64,000 bases of DNA from Escherichia coli. Lineage in GTDB: Bacteria > Pseudomonadota > Gammaproteobacteria > Enterobacterales > Enterobacteriaceae. The stretch lies in the NCBI RefSeq assembly GCF_030013205.1, contig NZ_CP122648.1; one strand, 5' to 3'. How positions within the stretch are numbered: position 1 is the stretch's first letter; each line of letters starts with the position of its first letter. The notes under the pieces were generated by a model. It was given only the letters and a program-made list of their open reading frames with translations, ran no database searches and was not told the origin of the DNA. Positions 1-58,748 of this stretch are shown here, one piece after another. Made by a program: the position numbers and the translations under genes.

Positions 1-99
1 CAACGCGGCACGTTGCGGTTCAAAGGCCCAGTCGACTTTATTCTGCGGAATATCGTGAGACTCCGGCAGTGCGTAAGCCTGTAATTTTGGAATAGCCAT
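1..99 (-). CDS. entB: EntB isochorismatase / aryl carrier protein, first 33 codons only (gene runs off the window start)
   Basis: Reverse complement of 1-99 translates MAIPKLQAYALPESHDIPQNKVDWAFEPQRAAL with ATG at 97-99; lies directly downstream of entE as in the entCEBA operon. Confidence 0.85.
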   Translation of the reverse strand, partial: MAIPKLQAYALPESHDIPQNKVDWAFEPQRAAL

Positions 100-112
100 C
101 GTGTTCTCTCCT

Positions 113-1723
113 TCAGGCTGATGCGCGTGACGCCAGCCACTGACGTAATTGTTTTTTCTCGACTTTCCCGACCGCCGTCAGCGGAAGTGAATCCACACAC
201 TCCACGCGATCCGGTAATTTAAATTCGGCAATACCCTGTTCACGCAGGAAACGACGCACCTGCACCGCGCGTAGAGGCTCTTTTACCACCAGATAAGCAC
301 AGCTTTTTTCGCCCATCAGCTCATCTTCCATGCTCACCAGTGCGGCGTAGATCACCGCCGGATGGCGCAGCAGCAGGTTTTCGATCTCTTCGGCAGCGAT
401 CTTCTCGCCGCCACGGTTGATCTGATCTTTCTCGCGCCCCTGCACGGTGATGTACCCCTCTGGATCAATAGAGATCAGATCACCAGAACAGTAAAAACCG
501 TTGGCATCAAAGGCGCTGGCATTGTGCTGCGGGCTTTTGTAATAGCCGCGGAAGGTGTACGGACCGCGCGTCATCAGGCGTCCGACTTCCCCTTGCGGCA
601 GTGGATTTCCTTCGGCATCGGCAACCCACACTTCATCGTCCGGACACATTGGATAGCCCTGGGTATGGATTATTTTCTCCGCGCTATCATCAAGTCGGGT
701 GTAGTTCACCAGTCCTTCCGCCATGCCGAATACCTGCTGTAACTGGCAGCCAATCTCTGCGGGAATACGCGCCGCAAGCGTGGCAGAAAGACGTGCACCA
801 CCGACCTGTAACAGTTTCAGCGAGGCAAGCTGCGCCCGGCTTTCGCCTTCGGTCAGCGCCTGTAACCACAGGCTGACTGCGGGTGGCACCAGCGCGGTGA
901 CGTTCACCTGATGTTTTTCAATCAATGGGAAGCAGAGCGTGGCGCTGGGGTCGGCAGCCAGAACGACAGTGCCGCCAGCGAGAAATACGCCCAGCGATCC
1001 TGGCGAACTCATGGCGTAGTTATGAGCCGCCGGGATCGCGCACAGGTAGCGTGTCTGTTGTGTGAACTGACAAATCTCGACGCTACGACGCACGCTGTAG
1101 TAGTAGTCGTTATGAGTGCGCGGGATCAGTTTCGGTGTGCCGGTGGTGCCGCCGGAAAGCTGGAAATAGGCCACTTCATCAGCAGGTGACGGCGTGGCAG
1201 TAAAATCCTCAGCCGGATGGTTAATCGCATCCTGCAAGTTATGCTCACCGCTGTCGTTGTGCAGTTGCACCACGCGAATGGAGGAATGCTCTGCAACAAA
1301 TGTATTGAGGAAATCATCTCCGCTAAACAGCGCATGCTGGCGATCGGCAATCAGTAACGCCGGTTCAATCTGGCTGGCATAGGCGTTCAGTTCACTACGC
1401 TGATGGCTGAACAGCGCCAGCACCGGCGCAACGCCCAGTTTCAGCAGTGCGAAAAAGGTAATGTAAAGTTCAGCGACGTTACCCAGTTGTACCAGCGCGG
1501 TTTCACCAGGTTTAATGCCCTGACGGCGTAAACTACACGCGAGGTTATCCGCCGCCTGATTCAGCTCTCGGTAACTCAACTGCCGCTCGCCGTCGATAAC
1601 CGCGATGCTGTCACTCGCAGCGTGGCGGGTCAGAATATCGGTCAGTGGCAAATCCTGCCAGTAGCCTTTTTCCCGATAGCGACGGGAAAACTCTTCCGGC
1701 CAGCGGGTGAATGGAATGCTCAT
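113..1723 (-). CDS. entE: 2,3-dihydroxybenzoate-AMP ligase EntE
   Basis: ORF 113..1729; translation from [12 protein letters not shown] recognised as EntE (536 aa, adenylation domain with SGGTTGTPK motif); start taken at the internal ATG. Confidence 0.95.
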
Positions 1724-1732
1724 CCTCACTCC

Positions 1733-2908
<1,176 letters not shown>

Positions 2909-2936
2909 ATCATCCTCCACAAAATGATAAAGGATT

Positions 2937-2957
2937 TAATAATGATTATCATTTATA
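2937..2957. promoter_or_regulatory. Fur box in the divergent entC / fepB promoter region
   Basis: Sequence aataatgattatcatttat closely matches the Fur consensus GATAATGATAATCATTATC; sits between divergent iron-regulated genes. Confidence 0.75.
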
Positions 2958-3096
2958 TTTTCGGTAGCTAACCTAAAAGCAAACGCGCACTATGTCAACT
3001 CTTGAGGTAACGCAATCTGCAACTCGGGGTTGCATCTGGTTGTGGTTACAATGAAAATGAGAAGCATTAACTTCATTAATAACAGGAAGCTGACTT

Positions 3097-17390: not shown

Positions 17391-17490
17391 TGCCGGATGC
17401 GGCGTGAACGCCTTATCCGGCCTACAAAAATCTTGCCAATTCAATATATTGCAGGACCACGTAGGCCTGATAAGCGTAGCGCATCAGGCA
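17391..17490. repeat. REP / BIME-type extragenic palindromic repeats between fepA and entD
   Basis: tgccggatgcggcgtgaacgccttatccggcctac and inverted gtaggcctgataagcgtagcgcatcaggca are typical REP units. Confidence 0.7.
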
Positions 17491-18268: not shown

Positions 18269-18421
18269 CTACTTCTTCGGTTCGTAAGCGAGAACAGCCT
18301 TAAACTCAATATTACGTTCCTTCACCGTAAACTCACACAGCGAGTCTCCGACCAGAAGCGTAAATCCCAGCACCGTTAAACACAGCACTATGACTGCCAC
18401 AAGGGCATATTTCGTCAGCAT
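18269..18421 (-). CDS. hokE: Hok-family type I toxin (HokE-like), copy 1
   Basis: 50-aa product [50 protein letters not shown]. Confidence 0.88.
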
Positions 18422-18566
18422 GTTTATATTGCCTCCATGCGAAGAAGGGACTACCATCCGAGTTGTTGAGGTTCGGAGTGGCAGCCCCAGGATTGATAGA
18501 AATATCTCCTGGGGCTTCATCTTTCCAGACCTCAGAGTTAACCTGAAACCGGAAAGCTTCAGGCAC
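18333..18566 (-). CDS. mok-like overlapping reading frame (modulator of killing), copy 1
   Basis: 77-codon [35 protein letters not shown]… starting upstream of hok and ending inside it in a different frame, as expected for mok. Confidence 0.5.
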
Positions 18567-18600
18567 CCGCTGTTATCTTACCCTTCCTTAGCAAAATAAC
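18530..18600 (+). ncRNA. candidate Sok antisense RNA, copy 1 (position approximate)
   Basis: Inferred from hok/sok architecture only: antisense to the mok translation-initiation region; no promoter or terminator mapped. Confidence 0.25.
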
Positions 18601-18771: not shown

Positions 18772-18924
18772 CTACTTCTTCGGTTCGTAAGCGAGAACAG
18801 CCTTAAACTCAATATTACGTTCCTTCACCGTAAACTCACACAGCGAGTCTCCGACTAGAAGCGTAAATCCCAGTACCGTCAAACACAGCACTATGACTGC
18901 CACAAGGGCATATTTCGTCAGCAT
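18772..18924 (-). CDS. Hok-family type I toxin, copy 2 (identical protein)
   Basis: Same 50-aa Hok sequence; here the upstream mok frame is fused in frame, giving a 98-codon ORF 18772..19068. Confidence 0.8.
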
Positions 18925-19029
18925 GTTTATATTGCCTCCATGCGAAGAAGGGACTACCATCCAAATTGTCTGGTTTGGAGTGGCAGCCCCAGGGTTGATA
19001 GAAATATCTCCTGGGGCTTCATCTTTCCA

Positions 19030-19100
19030 GACCTCAGAGTTAACCTGAAACCGGAAAGCTTCAGGCACCCGCCGTTATCTTACCCTTCTTCAGCAAAATA
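19030..19100 (+). ncRNA. candidate Sok antisense RNA, copy 2 (position approximate)
   Basis: Inferred by analogy with copy 1. Confidence 0.2.
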
Positions 19101-54340: not shown

Positions 54341-55015
54341 ATGAAAACAATCCATGACATCCGGCGGTCTAACGCCAGAAAACTGAGAGATGGTGTTGGC
54401 GGGAATTCTTCCTTTGCCACTATGATTGATCGCGAGCCAACCCAGACCAGCAGGTTTATGGGAGATGGTGCTACTAAAAATATCGGTGACAGCATGGCAC
54501 GACACATCGAAAAATGTTTCGACCTGCCTGTCGGATGGCTCGATCAAGAACACCAGACAACGAACATCACAAAAAAACCTGATGTTTCAATCACTAATAA
54601 ACAAATCACATTAGTCCCTGTCATATCATGGGTACAGGCCGGAGCATGGAAAGAAGTTGGATATTCTGAGGTTGATTTGAGCACAGCAGAAACGTATCCC
54701 TGCCCTGTACCCTGTGGGGAAATGACTTATATCCTGCGGGTGATAGGTGATTCAATGATTGATGAGTACCGCCCGGGAGACATGATTTTTGTCGATCCTG
54801 AAGTACCTGCCTGCCACGGTGACGACGTTATTGCATTGATGCACGATACAGGTGAAACCACCTTCAAAAGGTTGATAGAAGATGGGACACAGCGTTATCT
54901 CAAAGCGTTAAACCCAAACTGGCCTGAGCCTTACATTAAGATCAACGGTAATTGCTCTATAATTGGAACTGTGATTTTCTCAGGAAAACCAAGAAGATAC
55001 AAAATCAAAGCCTAA
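54341..55015 (+). CDS. CI-like phage repressor (N-terminal HTH, C-terminal LexA/S24-type autopeptidase)
   Basis: 224-aa ORF with the S24 serine motif (VIGDSM) and a downstream lysine (TFKRL). Confidence 0.85.
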   Translation: MKTIHDIRRSNARKLRDGVGGNSSFATMIDREPTQTSRFMGDGATKNIGDSMARHIEKCFDLPVGWLDQEHQTTNITKKPDVSITNKQITLVPVISWVQAGAWKEVGYSEVDLSTAETYPCPVPCGEMTYILRVIGDSMIDEYRPGDMIFVDPEVPACHGDDVIALMHDTGETTFKRLIEDGTQRYLKALNPNWPEPYIKINGNCSIIGTVIFSGKPRRYKIKA

Positions 55016-55026
55016 TCAATGTTTAT

Positions 55027-55050
55027 GAACCTGCTTCGGCAGGTTTTTTT
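55027..55050 (+). terminator. intrinsic terminator after cI
   Basis: gaacctgc-ttcg-gcaggtt followed by ttttttt. Confidence 0.75.
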
Positions 55051-55054
55051 ATAC

Positions 55055-55095
55055 TTGACAATGTACCTTTGAGATACATAATGTACCCAAGAGAA
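55055..55095 (+). promoter_or_regulatory. pL-like sigma70 promoter with OL-like operator half-sites
   Basis: TTGACA (55055-55060), 16 bp, CATAAT (55077-55082); two AATGTACC motifs overlap it, matching the TGTACC half-site of the OR palindromes. Confidence 0.55.
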
Positions 55096-55229
55096 ACAAC
55101 AAACAGGCAGGACCCCCACGAAGTATCCGCCTGGGGCATATGAAGTTCAGGATGATTCGTTAGCAACAAAAAAGCGCCCTACAGGACGCTTAGCTCTTTA
55201 ACAATCTGGATATCCACAACAGTAGTAAT

Positions 55230-55721
55230 CTACAGATTGCCGTTAAGTTTTCTGGACAACTCCTCAATGGATGGAGGCGATACGTAATCCGGATTTTTAT
55301 TCATCAGAAACTTATTTTCACAGTGGAGGCACCTGCTTTTATGAAAAAGCTCATCTTCGCTAACCGGGAATGGTTGAAGTATCGATACTATCTTTTGTCC
55401 AAAACATTTTGGGCAAAGATGCATGGTTATGCTGCCACCGTTCACGATTACCTCCTTCGAGTATACAAAAGTACCCGACTCAAGTTGGTTAAGGATATAG
55501 CCTTCCGTCTGAGCCTCAAAGTTTTCGAATTCTGCAATTTTAGCTTTGAGAGAAGCATTTATTTCTTGATAAGAGCCCACCAGTTCAACGAGAGACACGC
55601 ATTCGCGCTGAATAGACGCAAGCTTTGAGTTCAGCTCACCAATAGCCGCATTTACTTCAGCTTGAGTTTTTGCCTCGTTCATTAGTTTTGCAATCTGGGC
55701 TGTTTCACGAATAGCCGTCAT
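55230..55721 (-). CDS. prophage moron: coiled-coil protein with C-terminal C4 zinc ribbon, function unknown
   Basis: 163 aa from MTAIRETAQIAKLMNEAKTQAEVNAAIGELNSKL…; CPKCF…(18 aa)…CLHCE; AT-rich; start uncertain (alternative GTG at about 55754). Confidence 0.55.
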   Translation of the reverse strand: MTAIRETAQIAKLMNEAKTQAEVNAAIGELNSKLASIQRECVSLVELVGSYQEINASLKAKIAEFENFEAQTEGYILNQLESGTFVYSKEVIVNGGSITMHLCPKCFGQKIVSILQPFPVSEDELFHKSRCLHCENKFLMNKNPDYVSPPSIEELSRKLNGNL

Positions 55722-55789
55722 TGCTGCCGTTAATTCAGCGATCACATTGAATACTCTTATTGTTGTTGGGGATATCCAGATTAACCGAA

Positions 55790-56214
55790 TCCTTGTTGTT
55801 GGGGAATAACCAGGTCCACCTCGCCTGATGTGGCTAAAAGCAGGCACATAACAGCTAAGTATTTTCAACCAGAGAGAATCCTTAGCGTTGTGGTGAATGC
55901 GGCTCAGCGCACGCGGGTTAAGGTTGAGGCTGACAGTCGACCTTCTGTGGATACCCACCCGCCTGGTGTGCAACCTTCGCCAGGCACCGGGAGGCACCCG
56001 GCACCACAACTTTATGCTGTGTGTAGTCCTGGCGGTACCAGCTTGTACCCTTGCTTCCGGCTGGTACCGTCCTTTTTACAAAACAGAGAAGAGCATCACC
56101 GGACGACGGGCTCATAACCCAATCCATCCGGGCGGCGGCCACCACAGGTGTTCTTCTCTGTTTTGTGGAGAAACTAATCGGCCTTGCAGGGTCGATATGA
56201 TGAGGAGCAGCAAA
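55790..56214 (+). other. GC-rich, highly structured non-coding region (candidate structured RNA or recombination remnant)
   Basis: Nested inverted repeats: gcctgg/ccaggc, ccggg/cccgg, ggtaccagc/gctggtacc (9 bp), and caaaacagagaaga…tcttctctgttttg (about 15-17 bp); ORFs here lack plausible starts. Confidence 0.4.
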
Positions 56215-56577
56215 ATGGCTAGCGAACGCAGTACTGATGTGCAGGCATTTATCGGGGAGCTGGACGGCGGCGTATTTGAAACCAAAATCGGCGCAGTTCT
56301 CAGTGAAGTCGCTTCCGGTGTGATGAACACGAAAACCAAAGGTAAGGTCTCACTCAACCTGGAAATCGAACCATTTGATGAGAACCGTGTGAAAATCAAA
56401 CACAAACTCTCATATATTCGCCCGACTAACCGCGGGAAAATTTCCGAAGAAGACACCACCGAAACGCCGATGTATGTCAATCGCGGTGGTCGCCTGACTA
56501 TTCTGCAGGAAGACCAGGGACAATTACTGACTCTTGCCGGTGAACCTGACGGAAAACTCCGCGCAGCAGGTCGTTAA
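56215..56577 (+). CDS. yfdP: YfdP-like prophage protein (CPS-53 homologue as I recall)
   Basis: 120-aa product MASERSTDVQAFIGELDGGVFETKIGAVLSEV… with GAGGAG 9 nt upstream of the ATG. Confidence 0.7.
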   Translation: MASERSTDVQAFIGELDGGVFETKIGAVLSEVASGVMNTKTKGKVSLNLEIEPFDENRVKIKHKLSYIRPTNRGKISEEDTTETPMYVNRGGRLTILQEDQGQLLTLAGEPDGKLRAAGR

Positions 56578-57467: not shown

Positions 57468-57594
57468 TTTCATTACTGCAAATGCCCCTGCGGGGGCATT
57501 TATGGAAACGTAATTAACTCAATAATCACCGGATGGTGAGGGCTTCCTTTTACCAGAATTCAGCGCGGTGCAGTGCATATACGTGGAGAACAAA

Positions 57595-58656
57595 ATGTCA
57601 TTTATTAAAACTTTTTCCGGGAAGCATTTTTATTATGACAAGATAAATAAAGACGACATCGATATTAACGATATCGCGGTTTCCCTTTCAAATATCTGTC
57701 GCTTTGCCGGTCATCTTTCGCACTTCTACAGCGTCGCCCAACATGCGGTTCTTTGCAGCCAGCTGGTGCCGCAGGAATTTGCTTTTGAAGCGTTAATGCA
57801 TGATGCAACAGAAGCGTATTGCCAGGACATTCCCGCACCACTGAAACGCCTTCTTCCTGACTATAAACGGATGGAAGAAAAAATAGACGCCGTAATCCGT
57901 GAGAAATACGGGTTATCAACTCAGACAAAGGCAAAGCATCTTGCCATGATAAAGGCCATTCTCCGTGCTGCAGAACGCGACTGGAAGTGGCTGGAAAAAG
58001 CGCCTGTCATCAAGATACCAGCGGTCAGAAACAAGCGAGTCAGATGGCTGGAAAAGGAGGAAGCAAAACGCCTTATTGATGAGTGCCCCGAACCACTGAA
58101 ATCTGTCGTCAAGTTTGCGCTGGCAACTGGTCTGAGAAAGTCGAACATCATAAATCTGGAATGGCAACAAATCGACATGCAGCGACGAGTTGCCTGGGTG
58201 AATCCAGAAGAGAGCAAATCAAACCGCGCCATTGGTGTGGCGCTGAACGATACCGCCTGTAAAGTGTTGCGTGATCAAATAGGCAAGCATCACAAATGGG
58301 TGTTTGTACATACCAAGGCGGCTAAGCGAGCAGATGGAACATCAACGCCTGCGGTCAGGAAGATGCGCATCGACAGCAAGACATCATGGCTATCAGCTTG
58401 TCGTCGTGCAGGAATTGAAGATTTCCGTTTCCATGACCTCAGACACACCTGGGCAAGCTGGCTGATCCAGTCAGGCGTCCCATTATCTGTGCTTCAGGAA
58501 ATGGGCGGATGGGAGTCCATAGAAATGGTTCGTAGGTATGCTCACCTTGCGCCTAATCATTTGACAGAGCATGCAAGGAAAATAGACGACATTTTTGGTG
58601 ATAATGTCCCAAATATGTCCCACTGTGGAATTATGGAGGATATAAAGAAGGCGTAA
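57595..58656 (+). CDS. chimeric ORF: HD-domain phosphohydrolase N-terminus (YfdR-like) fused in frame to a tyrosine-recombinase catalytic domain (IntD-like)
   Basis: N-terminal 115 aa [15 protein letters not shown]…AGHLSHFY…[14 protein letters not shown] (HD motifs); the rest (…[19 protein letters not shown]…[10 protein letters not shown]…VRRYAHL…) is an integrase C-terminal domain with R/H-x-x-R/Y residues; ends 15 bp from argU. Confidence 0.8.
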
Positions 58657-58671
58657 CTGATTGAATTGTAA

Positions 58672-58748
58672 TGGCGCGCCCTGCAGGATTCGAACCTGCG
58701 GCCCACGACTTAGAAGGTCGTTGCTCTATCCAACTGAGCTAAGGGCGC
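58672..58748 (-). tRNA. argU: tRNA-Arg (anticodon UCU), argU
   Basis: Reverse complement reads GCGCCCTTAGCTCAGTTGGATAGAGCAACGACCTTCTAAGTCGTGGGCCGCAGGTTCGAATCCTGCAGGGCGCGCCA (77 nt, encoded CCA). Confidence 0.95.

Follow-up and report, generated by a model that had tools for sequence, protein, structure and literature searches.

A 425-nt tract (positions 55790–56214) directly upstream of the prophage gene yfdP was analysed in a 64,000-nt stretch of Escherichia coli DNA (contig NZ_CP122648.1), which is referred to as the window. The tract is probably a non-coding leader of the early-left (pL-side) operon harbouring two independently folding, conserved RNAs, of which one (module A) would be a terminated small RNA (sRNA) of the STnc100 type and the other (module B) would belong to the 5′ untranslated region (5′-UTR) of the downstream mRNA. 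The established part of this reading consists of the structures with their conservation and covariation, the link to a known RNA family, the lack of coding constraint and the place of the tract in the genome.

Folding of the 425 nt on the plus strand yielded −179.4 kcal/mol, compared to a mean of −144.6 kcal/mol for shuffled sequences (z = −5.61; 0 of 100 shuffles as good), with the minus strand being far weaker (z = −2.04). The first-pass annotation of this DNA had described a GC-rich region with four hairpins, and both observations held. The G+C content was 0.54–0.585 over 55800–56300 versus 0.36–0.45 in the flanks, and an inverted-repeat search retrieved all four hairpins in the places given for them. 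The gcctgg/ccaggc repeat (55961–66/55980–85) corresponds to helix H4 and the ccggg/cccgg repeat (55987–91/55997–56001) to helix H5 of module A; the ggtaccagc/gctggtacc stem is a perfect 10-bp repeat (56033–42/56060–69) followed by TCCTTTTT; and the long stem (56078–95/56149–66) comprises 18 nt at 94% complementarity, or 20 bp with U·G pairs included. Among the interpretations offered there, a structured non-coding RNA is supported by the relationship of part of the tract to STnc100 and by compensatory changes in both modules across phages and genera, and a leader or processing element agrees with the position of the tract between the immunity region and the first early-left gene.

Module A comprises the following features.

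55887–56077, plus strand: module A overall (core, linker and terminator-like hairpin)
55887–56010, plus strand: module A core, STnc100-like, supported by the Rfam RF02076 match and by compensatory changes in closing stem P1, H1 and the pseudoknot
55887–95/56002–10, plus strand: closing stem P1, then AAU
55898–901/55908–11, plus strand: helix H1
55913–18/55957–62, plus strand: helix H2
55920–26/55971–77, plus strand: pseudoknot of AAGGUUG with CAACCUU
55963–68/55978–83, plus strand: helix H4
55987–91/55997–56001, plus strand: helix H5 (CCGGG/CCCGG), loop AGGCA
56011–56030, plus strand: single-stranded linker UUUAUGCUGUGUGUAGUCCU
56031–56077, plus strand: terminator-like hairpin with a 10-bp perfect stem (56033–42/56060–69; 13 bp in the minimum free energy (MFE) fold), then UCCUUUUU (U-tract)

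The Rfam covariance search suggested in the first-pass annotation returned a match to STnc100 (RF02076) at 55857–56080 with 42.4 bits and an E-value of 8.5e-7, which was full-length (model positions 1–206) but sub-threshold. Scores of other copies ranged from 207.7 bits for the copy downstream of stx2B in Stx2 phage 86 over 81 bits in a Klebsiella phage and 52.6 bits in HK639 to those of the window subtype, which besides the window included SJ46 (41.9), phiES15 (40.6), ST64B (35.1), P1 (33.4) and e14 (29.2). Because the scores form a graded series among relatives, the window copy is best placed as a divergent STnc100 subtype and not as a chance match. The conserved sequences of the family, GGUGAAU (55892–98) and CACCGGGAGGCACCCGGCACC (55985–56005), were both present, as were its shared structural elements, i.e., the closing stem, H1, H4, H5 and the pseudoknot. 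The hairpin at 56031–56077 (−25.7 kcal/mol, z = −3.5) aligns to the 3′ terminator hairpin of the Rfam model, and its G+C-rich stem of 10–13 bp followed by UCCUUUUU has, judged from sequence, the make-up of an intrinsic terminator. In Stx2 phage 86 (contig L008, 1316–1575), STnc100 (1316–1521, plus strand) was seen to abut the anti-sRNA AsxR (1523–1575, minus strand) downstream of stx2B.

A scan of one genome per species for the invariant 21-mer CACCGGGARGCACCCGGCACC revealed more than 120 loci in many genera of Enterobacterales (Citrobacter, Enterobacter, Pantoea, Erwinia, Rahnella, Klebsiella, Salmonella, Kosakonia, Buttiauxella and others), and many genomes had more than one copy. Together with the phage loci, these gave 125 distinct cores, which share a layout of closing stem (GGUG/CACC), AAU, H1, a variable arm, H4, CA, the invariant H5 (CCGGG-AGGCA-CCCGG) and the 3′ closing strand. 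The two closing-stem pairs outside GGUG:CACC were paired in 96–97% of the cores, with UA, CG or UG at one pair and GC, AU or GU at the other, and H1 occurred as 17 distinct stems. In nearly every core, the segment after H1 is complementary to the H4 loop, with the sequence itself varying. In an alignment-free test limited to the H4 loop (about 70 distinct strings, 117 sequences), the longest Watson–Crick run between the two averaged 5.2 within a sequence and 3.4 with unrelated partners (Mann–Whitney p = 5e-33). This test replaced an earlier one using broad regions and duplex energies, which was confounded by helix H2 in the window subtype. The pairing AAGGUUG:CAACCUU of the window is matched by AAGGCUG:CAGCCUU in phiES15, UGGUUAU:AUAACCA in phage P1, AGACUGACAAA:UUUGUCAGUCU in a Pantoea copy, and CCAGU:ACUGG among many others in canonical copies. 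We conclude from these patterns that the pairing is a pseudoknot covarying across Enterobacterales; it is absent from the Rfam STnc100 consensus as far as the printed structure line shows. The isolated core folded into closing stem P1, H4 and H5 (z = −3.1). In the MFE fold of the whole tract as a single sequence, GUUGUG (55887–92) pairs with the upstream CACAUAAC (55845–52) and a local hairpin is preferred over the pseudoknot, which makes this fold an unreliable guide to the conserved structure.

The linker is a candidate seed or Hfq-contact region, as suggested by the recurrence of GCUGUGUGUAGUC (up to two mismatches) in 40 of 87 distinct related segments with several cassette types. An antiterminator pairing of CGCCAGG (55978–84) with CCUGGCG (56029–35) was considered and dropped, as it is not kept in ST64B.

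Module B is a 20-bp stem capped by a three-way junction with a tRNA-anticodon-like tip. Its features, and the hairpin that follows it, are listed below.

56078–56174, plus strand: module B overall, the second RNA module (structure 56078–56166 and trailing GGAGAAAC)
56078–97/56147–66, plus strand: outer stem S1, 20 bp
56099–103/56127–31, plus strand: stem S2 (CCGGA/UCCGG), with an internal loop
56108–20, plus strand: tip GGG-CUCAUAA-CCC
56132–45, plus strand: variable hairpin H3
56167–56174, plus strand: conserved single-stranded GGAGAAAC, directly after the stem
56179–56194, plus strand: hairpin Y (CGGCC UUGCAG GGUCG), between module B and the yfdP ribosome-binding site

Module B folded on its own with z = −5.4. 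Scanning viral contigs for the tip motif yielded 120 loci with 86 distinct sequences, and a covariance model (R1) built from nine of these scored the window with 111.9 bits on the plus strand versus 37.8 bits on the minus strand. Among 30 distinct sequences, 95.8% of the cells were paired, compared to 39–53% with the partners slid, nine pairs had changed on both sides, and none of 500 shuffles reached the covariation score; these counts come from a model-fitted alignment and so lean towards the structure. Outside the fitted alignment, S2 was found as CUGAU/AUCAG in Klebsiella phages, CUACCU/GGGUAG and CUGUCU/GGGCAG in other contigs, and CCUGUA/UACAGG in phage P1. Following the stem, GGAGAAAC is kept in nearly all of the 86 distinct sequences, with the downstream sequence differing, and by eye the position of hairpin Y is occupied in relatives by a hairpin made from different sequences (CGACC..GGUCG, GGCGGUGGCAGCCGCC, CCGCCCCUACGGGGGC).

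The tip of module B matches the anticodon arm of the E. coli initiator tRNA, with 56107–56120 (CGGGCUCAUAACCC) being identical over 14 of 14 nt. The reference sequence used for this comparison was verified by its presence at 100% identity in 5425 of 5426 E. coli genomes, in four copies per genome and annotated as tRNA-Met. Phages P1 and ST64B retain the CAU triplet of the tip, the decayed copy of e14 being the only one to have lost it. Module B as a whole is not a tRNA: neither ARAGORN in default mode nor the Rfam tRNA model gave a match, relatives were likewise not called by ARAGORN, and the permissive mitochondrial mode gave no call on module B and its relatives at default settings and noise-level calls at an 80% threshold. 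It matched no Rfam family at E-values up to 1. Nothing relevant was retrieved when the literature was searched for prophage RNAs that mimic the anticodon arm of the initiator tRNA. Pairing of the CUCAUAA loop with the downstream start codon region (AUGAG, UAUGAG) was set aside as speculation, since it extends over 5–6 nt only and partly reflects Met-Ser codons.

The way in which the tract would be expressed follows from its surroundings, where the gene order is read along the plus strand.

54341–55015: gene of a LexA-family, cI-like repressor
55027–55046: terminator of the repressor gene
55055–55082, plus strand: pL-like sigma-70 promoter (TTGACA, 16 nt, CATAAT; 11 of 12 consensus matches), directly after the repressor gene and its terminator
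55230–55745, minus strand: gene for 171 aa on the opposite strand with its own terminator, separating the pL-like promoter from the tract
56202–07 and 56215–17, plus strand: Shine–Dalgarno sequence GAGGAG and start codon of yfdP, as in the RefSeq annotation of the identical sequence in strain 94-3024

The first-pass annotation had placed the tract downstream of a pL-like promoter. That promoter is there, with repeated operator-like words (AATGTACC) read from the sequence; it lies about 800 nt upstream, though, with the opposite-strand gene in between. As no closer consensus promoter was found, it is the likeliest transcript start and thus the likely source of transcripts entering the tract, and because the repressor belongs to the LexA family, the promoter should fire on induction. 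The predicted order of events is that, once the repressor is removed, transcripts from the promoter at 55055 enter the tract and partial termination at 56077 frees a structured sRNA of about 200 nt or longer. By analogy with PasD/STnc100, the freed RNA would bind Hfq and act by base pairing. For the prophage sRNA PasD, binding to Hfq was detected by RIL-seq and the RNA was validated on northern blots (bioRxiv 10.64898/2026.05.13.724894), and the functions of STnc100 in the literature are only speculative (PMC12370729). Read-through transcripts would carry module B, GGAGAAAC and hairpin Y as the 5′-UTR of yfdP-yfdQ-yfdR. Since a 20-bp duplex between sRNA and mRNA resembles the sites in T7 and lambda early transcripts, our best guess is that the outer stem of module B serves as an RNase III site that splits the sRNA from the mRNA and sets the mRNA 5′ end. 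The initiator-tRNA-like tip may give module B a second role.

Several observations weigh against this account. The STnc100 match stays below the gathering score of 47, the covariation counts of module B have the lean stated above, and the pseudoknot of the window has a competitor in a local hairpin (AAGGUUGA/UCGACCUU). No consensus sigma-70 promoter was found close upstream of module A, and a transcript from the pL-like promoter must cross 500 nt antisense to the other gene as well as the hairpin of that gene (55172–55191). Canonical STnc100/PasD copies belong to the late region, where they lie between Q and the lysis genes, unlike the early-left position here, and at least one canonical copy, in a Klebsiella phage, has by eye an apparent promoter of its own just upstream. 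An elaborate and conserved fold of this kind is unusual for a plain base-pairing sRNA. In Citrobacter braakii ATCC 51113 (contig L162, 10180–11270), three STnc100-type cores lie within 1 kb, the second 8 nt ahead of a sequence that resembles tRNA-Arg(UCU) by eye and is not called by ARAGORN, and the third about 6 nt ahead of a tRNA with anticodon CAU. These cores seem to be members of a tRNA array without terminators of their own, which hints at another function.

The RNA of the pL-proximal stretch (55088–55200) folded no better than shuffles (z = −0.8); the first ~80 nt of the presumed pL transcript (55088–55170, ACAGGCAGGACCCCCACGAAGUAUCCGCCUGGGGC...) recur with changes in contig L013.

Comparison with related contigs revealed that module A occupies a slot between constant flanks. 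These consist of an upstream piece, a hairpin, GUUGUGGUG and, after the insert, CACCACAAC, the terminator and module B. The corresponding upstream features in the window are the following.

55816–55852, plus strand: backbone piece CCACCUCGCCUGAUGUGGCUAAAAGCAGGCACAUAAC, kept in e14, Cronobacter phage phiES15 and many viral contigs with any cassette
55854–55886, plus strand: hairpin X (GCUAAGUAUUUUC/GAGAAUCCUUAGC), directly 5′ of module A

Read by eye, CCAC/GUGG and GCCUG/CAGGC within the backbone piece could form a pseudoknot. The pairing of CACAUAAC with GUUGUG described above is an alternative present in the MFE folds. Because GUUGUG can pair with the upstream CACA(U)AAC, extending the preceding hairpin, the closing stem of module A competes with the preceding stem. 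In phage P1, the position of hairpin X is taken by a module-B-like hairpin.

Between the closing-stem halves, at least a dozen types of insert were found. The mEp460-type cassette (contigs L020, L021, L026, L090 and L106), which fills the GUUGUGGUG–CACCACAAC slot, had no Rfam match; in it, the loop of the first hairpin is complementary to that of the last, and the two covary (GCUGAU:AUCAGC versus GCCGAU:AUCGGC) in a tRNA-elbow-like manner. Another cassette type has tRNA-like D and T arms, contig L129 holds no cassette, and that of contig L090 starts immediately at a pL-type promoter, which operator-like palindromes flank. For the other cassettes, no Rfam family was matched either. In viral contigs L013 and L019, an apparently structured element (UUCGGGAGGGGUUGCGG...GGAGUGACUACC...CCCGCCCGAA) without an Rfam match replaces module A.

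Relatives of module B were also detected in tRNA arrays. In Klebsiella phages, a short form closes such arrays, lying six nt after the CCA of the preceding tRNA, and is made of a 6-bp acceptor-like stem followed by RCCA, an arrangement that suggests tRNA-type processing. The window copy has instead the 20-bp stem followed by GGAGAAAC. In the ban operon of phage P1 (contig L005, 1487–2630; NC_005856, ~69060–70210), four tandem module-B-like hairpins on the plus strand are interleaved with tRNA-Asn and tRNA-Thr, with one unit starting right after tRNA-Thr. Each hairpin is followed by GUUGYG and a cassette, the last of which is an STnc100-like core, and the hairpins overlap the region of the plp and upl annotation on the opposite strand.

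From this distribution, a broader proposal can be drawn, which we regard as doubtful: module B and the slot cassettes would form an undescribed class of modular, tRNA-operon-compatible phage RNAs, in which the tip mimics the initiator anticodon arm to decoy or recruit a host factor, for example a VapC-type initiator-tRNA nuclease or the 30S P site, and the STnc100-type fold is a functional tertiary structure rather than just a scaffold for a seed. The putative units of hairpin plus cassette would number four in the P1 ban operon and one or two in phages of the SfV/ST64B/e14 type, and would occur singly at the ends of Klebsiella tRNA arrays. If this were true, ymfH of E. coli K-12, which overlies the homologous DNA of e14, would act as an RNA.

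A cis-acting role like that of the put RNAs is an unlikely alternative to the favoured sRNA and 5′-UTR reading. By analogy with put, nascent module A would let RNA polymerase pass the terminator that follows it and further ones, with the cassettes being alternative antiterminators. The layout agrees with this in that a structured RNA is found at or near the start of the pL transcript with a terminator right behind it, which must be passed for expression of yfdP and later genes, and in that no N-like antiterminator gene is annotated between the promoter and yfdP. The cassette of contig L090 sits directly at the pL start, as putL does (PMC9378689), and by eye a boxA-like word (UGCUCUU) precedes many cassettes. 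However, this word is base-paired and altered (GUUCUUC) in the window, and no sequence similarity was found either to the RNA annotated as putL-like in HK639 or to any part of HK022. The put RNAs are, moreover, V-shaped two-stem structures of ~70 nt, in contrast to the five-helix pseudoknotted fold of module A, and canonical STnc100 copies are stand-alone genes in late operons, where Q already antiterminates, or members of tRNA arrays.

Less plausible is a role of module B, and perhaps of module A, as a trans-acting tRNA mimic released by tRNA-type processing, for example as a decoy protecting translation during infection. Examples of host factors that recognise the initiator anticodon arm and might thus be decoyed are a VapC-type nuclease, the 30S P site and a synthetase. 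The 14-nt identity, which includes the three G-C pairs, speaks for such a mimic, as does the retention of CAU in the live phages P1 and ST64B. The same holds for the Klebsiella phage versions, with their tRNA-like spacing, acceptor-like stem and RCCA, for the P1 unit behind tRNA-Thr and for the C. braakii cores 6–8 nt ahead of tRNA genes. The window copy, by contrast, lacks a CCA end and is buried in a 20-bp stem in an mRNA leader, and the failure of ARAGORN and of the Rfam tRNA model to call it, together with the lack of a precedent in the literature search, counts against mimicry. The likeness may merely reflect descent from a tRNA gene fragment.

That the tract is a functionless scar of leftover tRNA genes, attachment sites and recombination joints at a boundary of the lambdoid mosaic is very unlikely. 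It would account for a slot that holds about a dozen unrelated inserts depending on the phage, one of them with tRNA-like arms, for tRNA T-arm fragments upstream in some contigs and for the empty slot of contig L129. Yet compensatory changes conserve both modules across genera, and the modules are kept in the active phages SfV, SfIV, ST64B, P1 and PhiR29_1, the only clearly degraded copy being that of the defective e14. The relic of a recombination site suggested in the first-pass annotation is thus not supported as such, although the conserved flanks do enclose different RNA cassettes in different phages.

We attach next to no weight to a decayed coding gene, i.e., a frameshifted YmfH member with incidental hairpins. 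For strain 94-3024, in which the sequence is identical, RefSeq does list a 'frameshifted hypothetical protein', a call made by PGAP, and 'ymfH' is annotated on the homologous DNA of K-12 e14, and the sole PHROG match, to a PHROG of 62 residues, covers YmfH residues 60–96. A ymfH clone has also been reported to trigger the toxin of the Salmonella retron-Sen2 on overexpression (bioRxiv 10.1101/2020.06.22.160242), an effect that could equally stem from the RNA and may come from it rather than from a protein. The first-pass annotation had named a frameshifted gene across the tract as the finding that would overturn the RNA reading; such a gene exists in the databases and fails the coding tests. 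From the conserved AUG inside GGUGAAUGCGG, the open reading frame (ORF) extends over 7 codons in ST64B, 27 in P1, 41 in phiES15, 42 in e14 and 226 in the window, and ymfH of e14 is in another frame, as one nucleotide of hairpin H5 is deleted there. When the window is compared with e14 or ST64B, substitutions are spread evenly over the codon positions (9/12/8 and 17/18/21), the indels measure 1 and 20 nt, no NCBIfam model matches YmfH, and no gene is annotated over the homologous tract in ST64B, phiES15 and P1. Membership in a YmfH protein family was rejected on account of ORF length, frame changes, codon-position spread, indels and the missing NCBIfam model; conservation is accounted for by compensatory RNA changes, and the annotated ymfH-like protein gene is almost certainly spurious. 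The initial statement that no ORF with a plausible start exists was incorrect, as a 95-aa ORF with GTG start (55830–56117) and a 226-aa ORF with ATG start (55897–56577, continuing in frame into yfdP) were found, neither of which is conserved. In K-12 e14, ymfH (contig L002, 4076–4387) overlies decayed modules A and B, with UUAAUAA as the anticodon-like loop.

The region represents the pL-side half of an SfV/ST64B/e14-like prophage that is integrated at a tRNA-Arg gene (58672–58748, minus strand), the only tRNA called by ARAGORN. The order of repressor, promoter, RNA modules, early-left genes, integrase and tRNA-Arg attachment site is common to e14, ST64B and phiES15. Downstream of the tract, yfdP (ATG at 56215), whose product matches PHROG 204, is followed by yfdQ and by an ORF with a yfdR-like start and an integrase-like end. 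This ORF (57568–58656, 362 aa) begins like YfdR (5′-deoxynucleotidase) and ends like a tyrosine integrase, and in strain 94-3024 yfdR, two further genes, yfdT and intD are all separate. As yfdR and intD are thus separate there and one 362-aa ORF here, an internal deletion appears to have fused yfdR to the integrase gene in the window prophage. Direct repeats of TTGTTGTTGGGGA (55754–55771 and 55787–55804, 33 bp apart) separate the RNA tract from the start of the opposite-strand gene (55745), for which they may provide a promoter element or a site of protein binding. The comparison with K-12 CPS-53 proposed in the first-pass annotation was carried out and proved uninformative, since CPS-53 lacks the tract: iteron-like repeats (GATTTTGACGGGTCAGATTTTGATGCGTCAG) of the yfdO replication-origin region are joined there about 25 nt before yfdP (contig L254, 5400–5520), and the immunity region and both RNA modules are lost. 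Other Rfam matches above the gathering score in the window were IS009 (52745–52944, minus strand, 133.7 bits), two sok antitoxin RNAs (18413–18568 and 18916–19070, both minus strand, ~82 bits each) and ES036 (17427–17468, plus strand).

The practical consequence concerns annotation: of 5426 complete E. coli genomes, 3090 have some of the tract affected by calls of ymfH or the 'frameshifted hypothetical protein', and in 1156 the affected portion is at least 80%. These probably false gene calls should give way to RNA features, which matters for screens with ymfH clones such as that for the retron-Sen2 trigger. Module B is a widespread phage RNA motif without an Rfam family that carries an exact initiator anticodon arm and occurs in tRNA arrays and early operons of P1, SfV and ST64B. 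It raises the question of whether phages place partial tRNA mimics beside whole phage tRNAs against host factors that target tRNAs, and the interest of the tract would rise if the tRNA-mimic reading were true.

Among known systems, the put RNAs are structured RNAs encoded where the pL transcript begins and ahead of terminators, in phages with no obvious N protein (PMC9378689; HK639 annotation). The likeness of the tract to those of HK022 and HK639 is positional only, with no similarity in sequence or architecture. Compared to the initiator tRNA (tRNA-fMet), module B shares the 14-nt tip, and its relatives in phage tRNA arrays possess an acceptor-like stem and CCA; module B lacks both a D arm and a T arm, and in the window the tip caps a 20-bp stem with no CCA. 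Hairpins processed by RNase III are known in phage early transcripts, such as those of the T7 early region, the lambda N leader and lambda sib. What module B has in common with them is a long duplex, nearly perfect and spanning about two helical turns, which is placed between functional units of an early transcript, whereas the known sites lack a conserved three-way junction and a tRNA-like tip.

DicF of the Qin dicB operon, which is released from a polycistronic transcript, is likewise an sRNA in a repressor-controlled early-left operon and has a terminator hairpin of the GGCGGUA.C type. The e14 copy gave a weak match to DicF (RF00039; 28.5 bits versus a gathering score of 48), the operon of P1 that holds its copies also contains a 'dicF-like region', and the window showed no DicF match at E-values up to 1. 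DicF differs by having no structured 5′ domain and by its seed sequence.

With STnc100, PasD1 and PasD2, the window shares the GGUGAAU and 22-nt CACCGGGAGGCACCCGGCACC(A) motifs, the order of closing stem, H1, variable arm, H4, H5 and terminator, the covarying pseudoknot and the occurrence on prophages of Enterobacterales. It differs in H1, which is UGCG/CGCA with the loop GCUCAG instead of CCCCC/GGGG, and in the extra helix H2. Whereas canonical copies are found between Q and the lysis or stx genes, the window copy lies in an early-left leader. No promoter belonging to the window copy was detected, and it is followed by module B, which canonical copies do not have. Taken together, module A is best described as a new subtype of a family that is known but functionally uncharacterised, and its context is also new. 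The STnc100/PasD family would thereby extend to a second subtype in a different operon, with a pseudoknotted fold beyond what a base-pairing sRNA needs.

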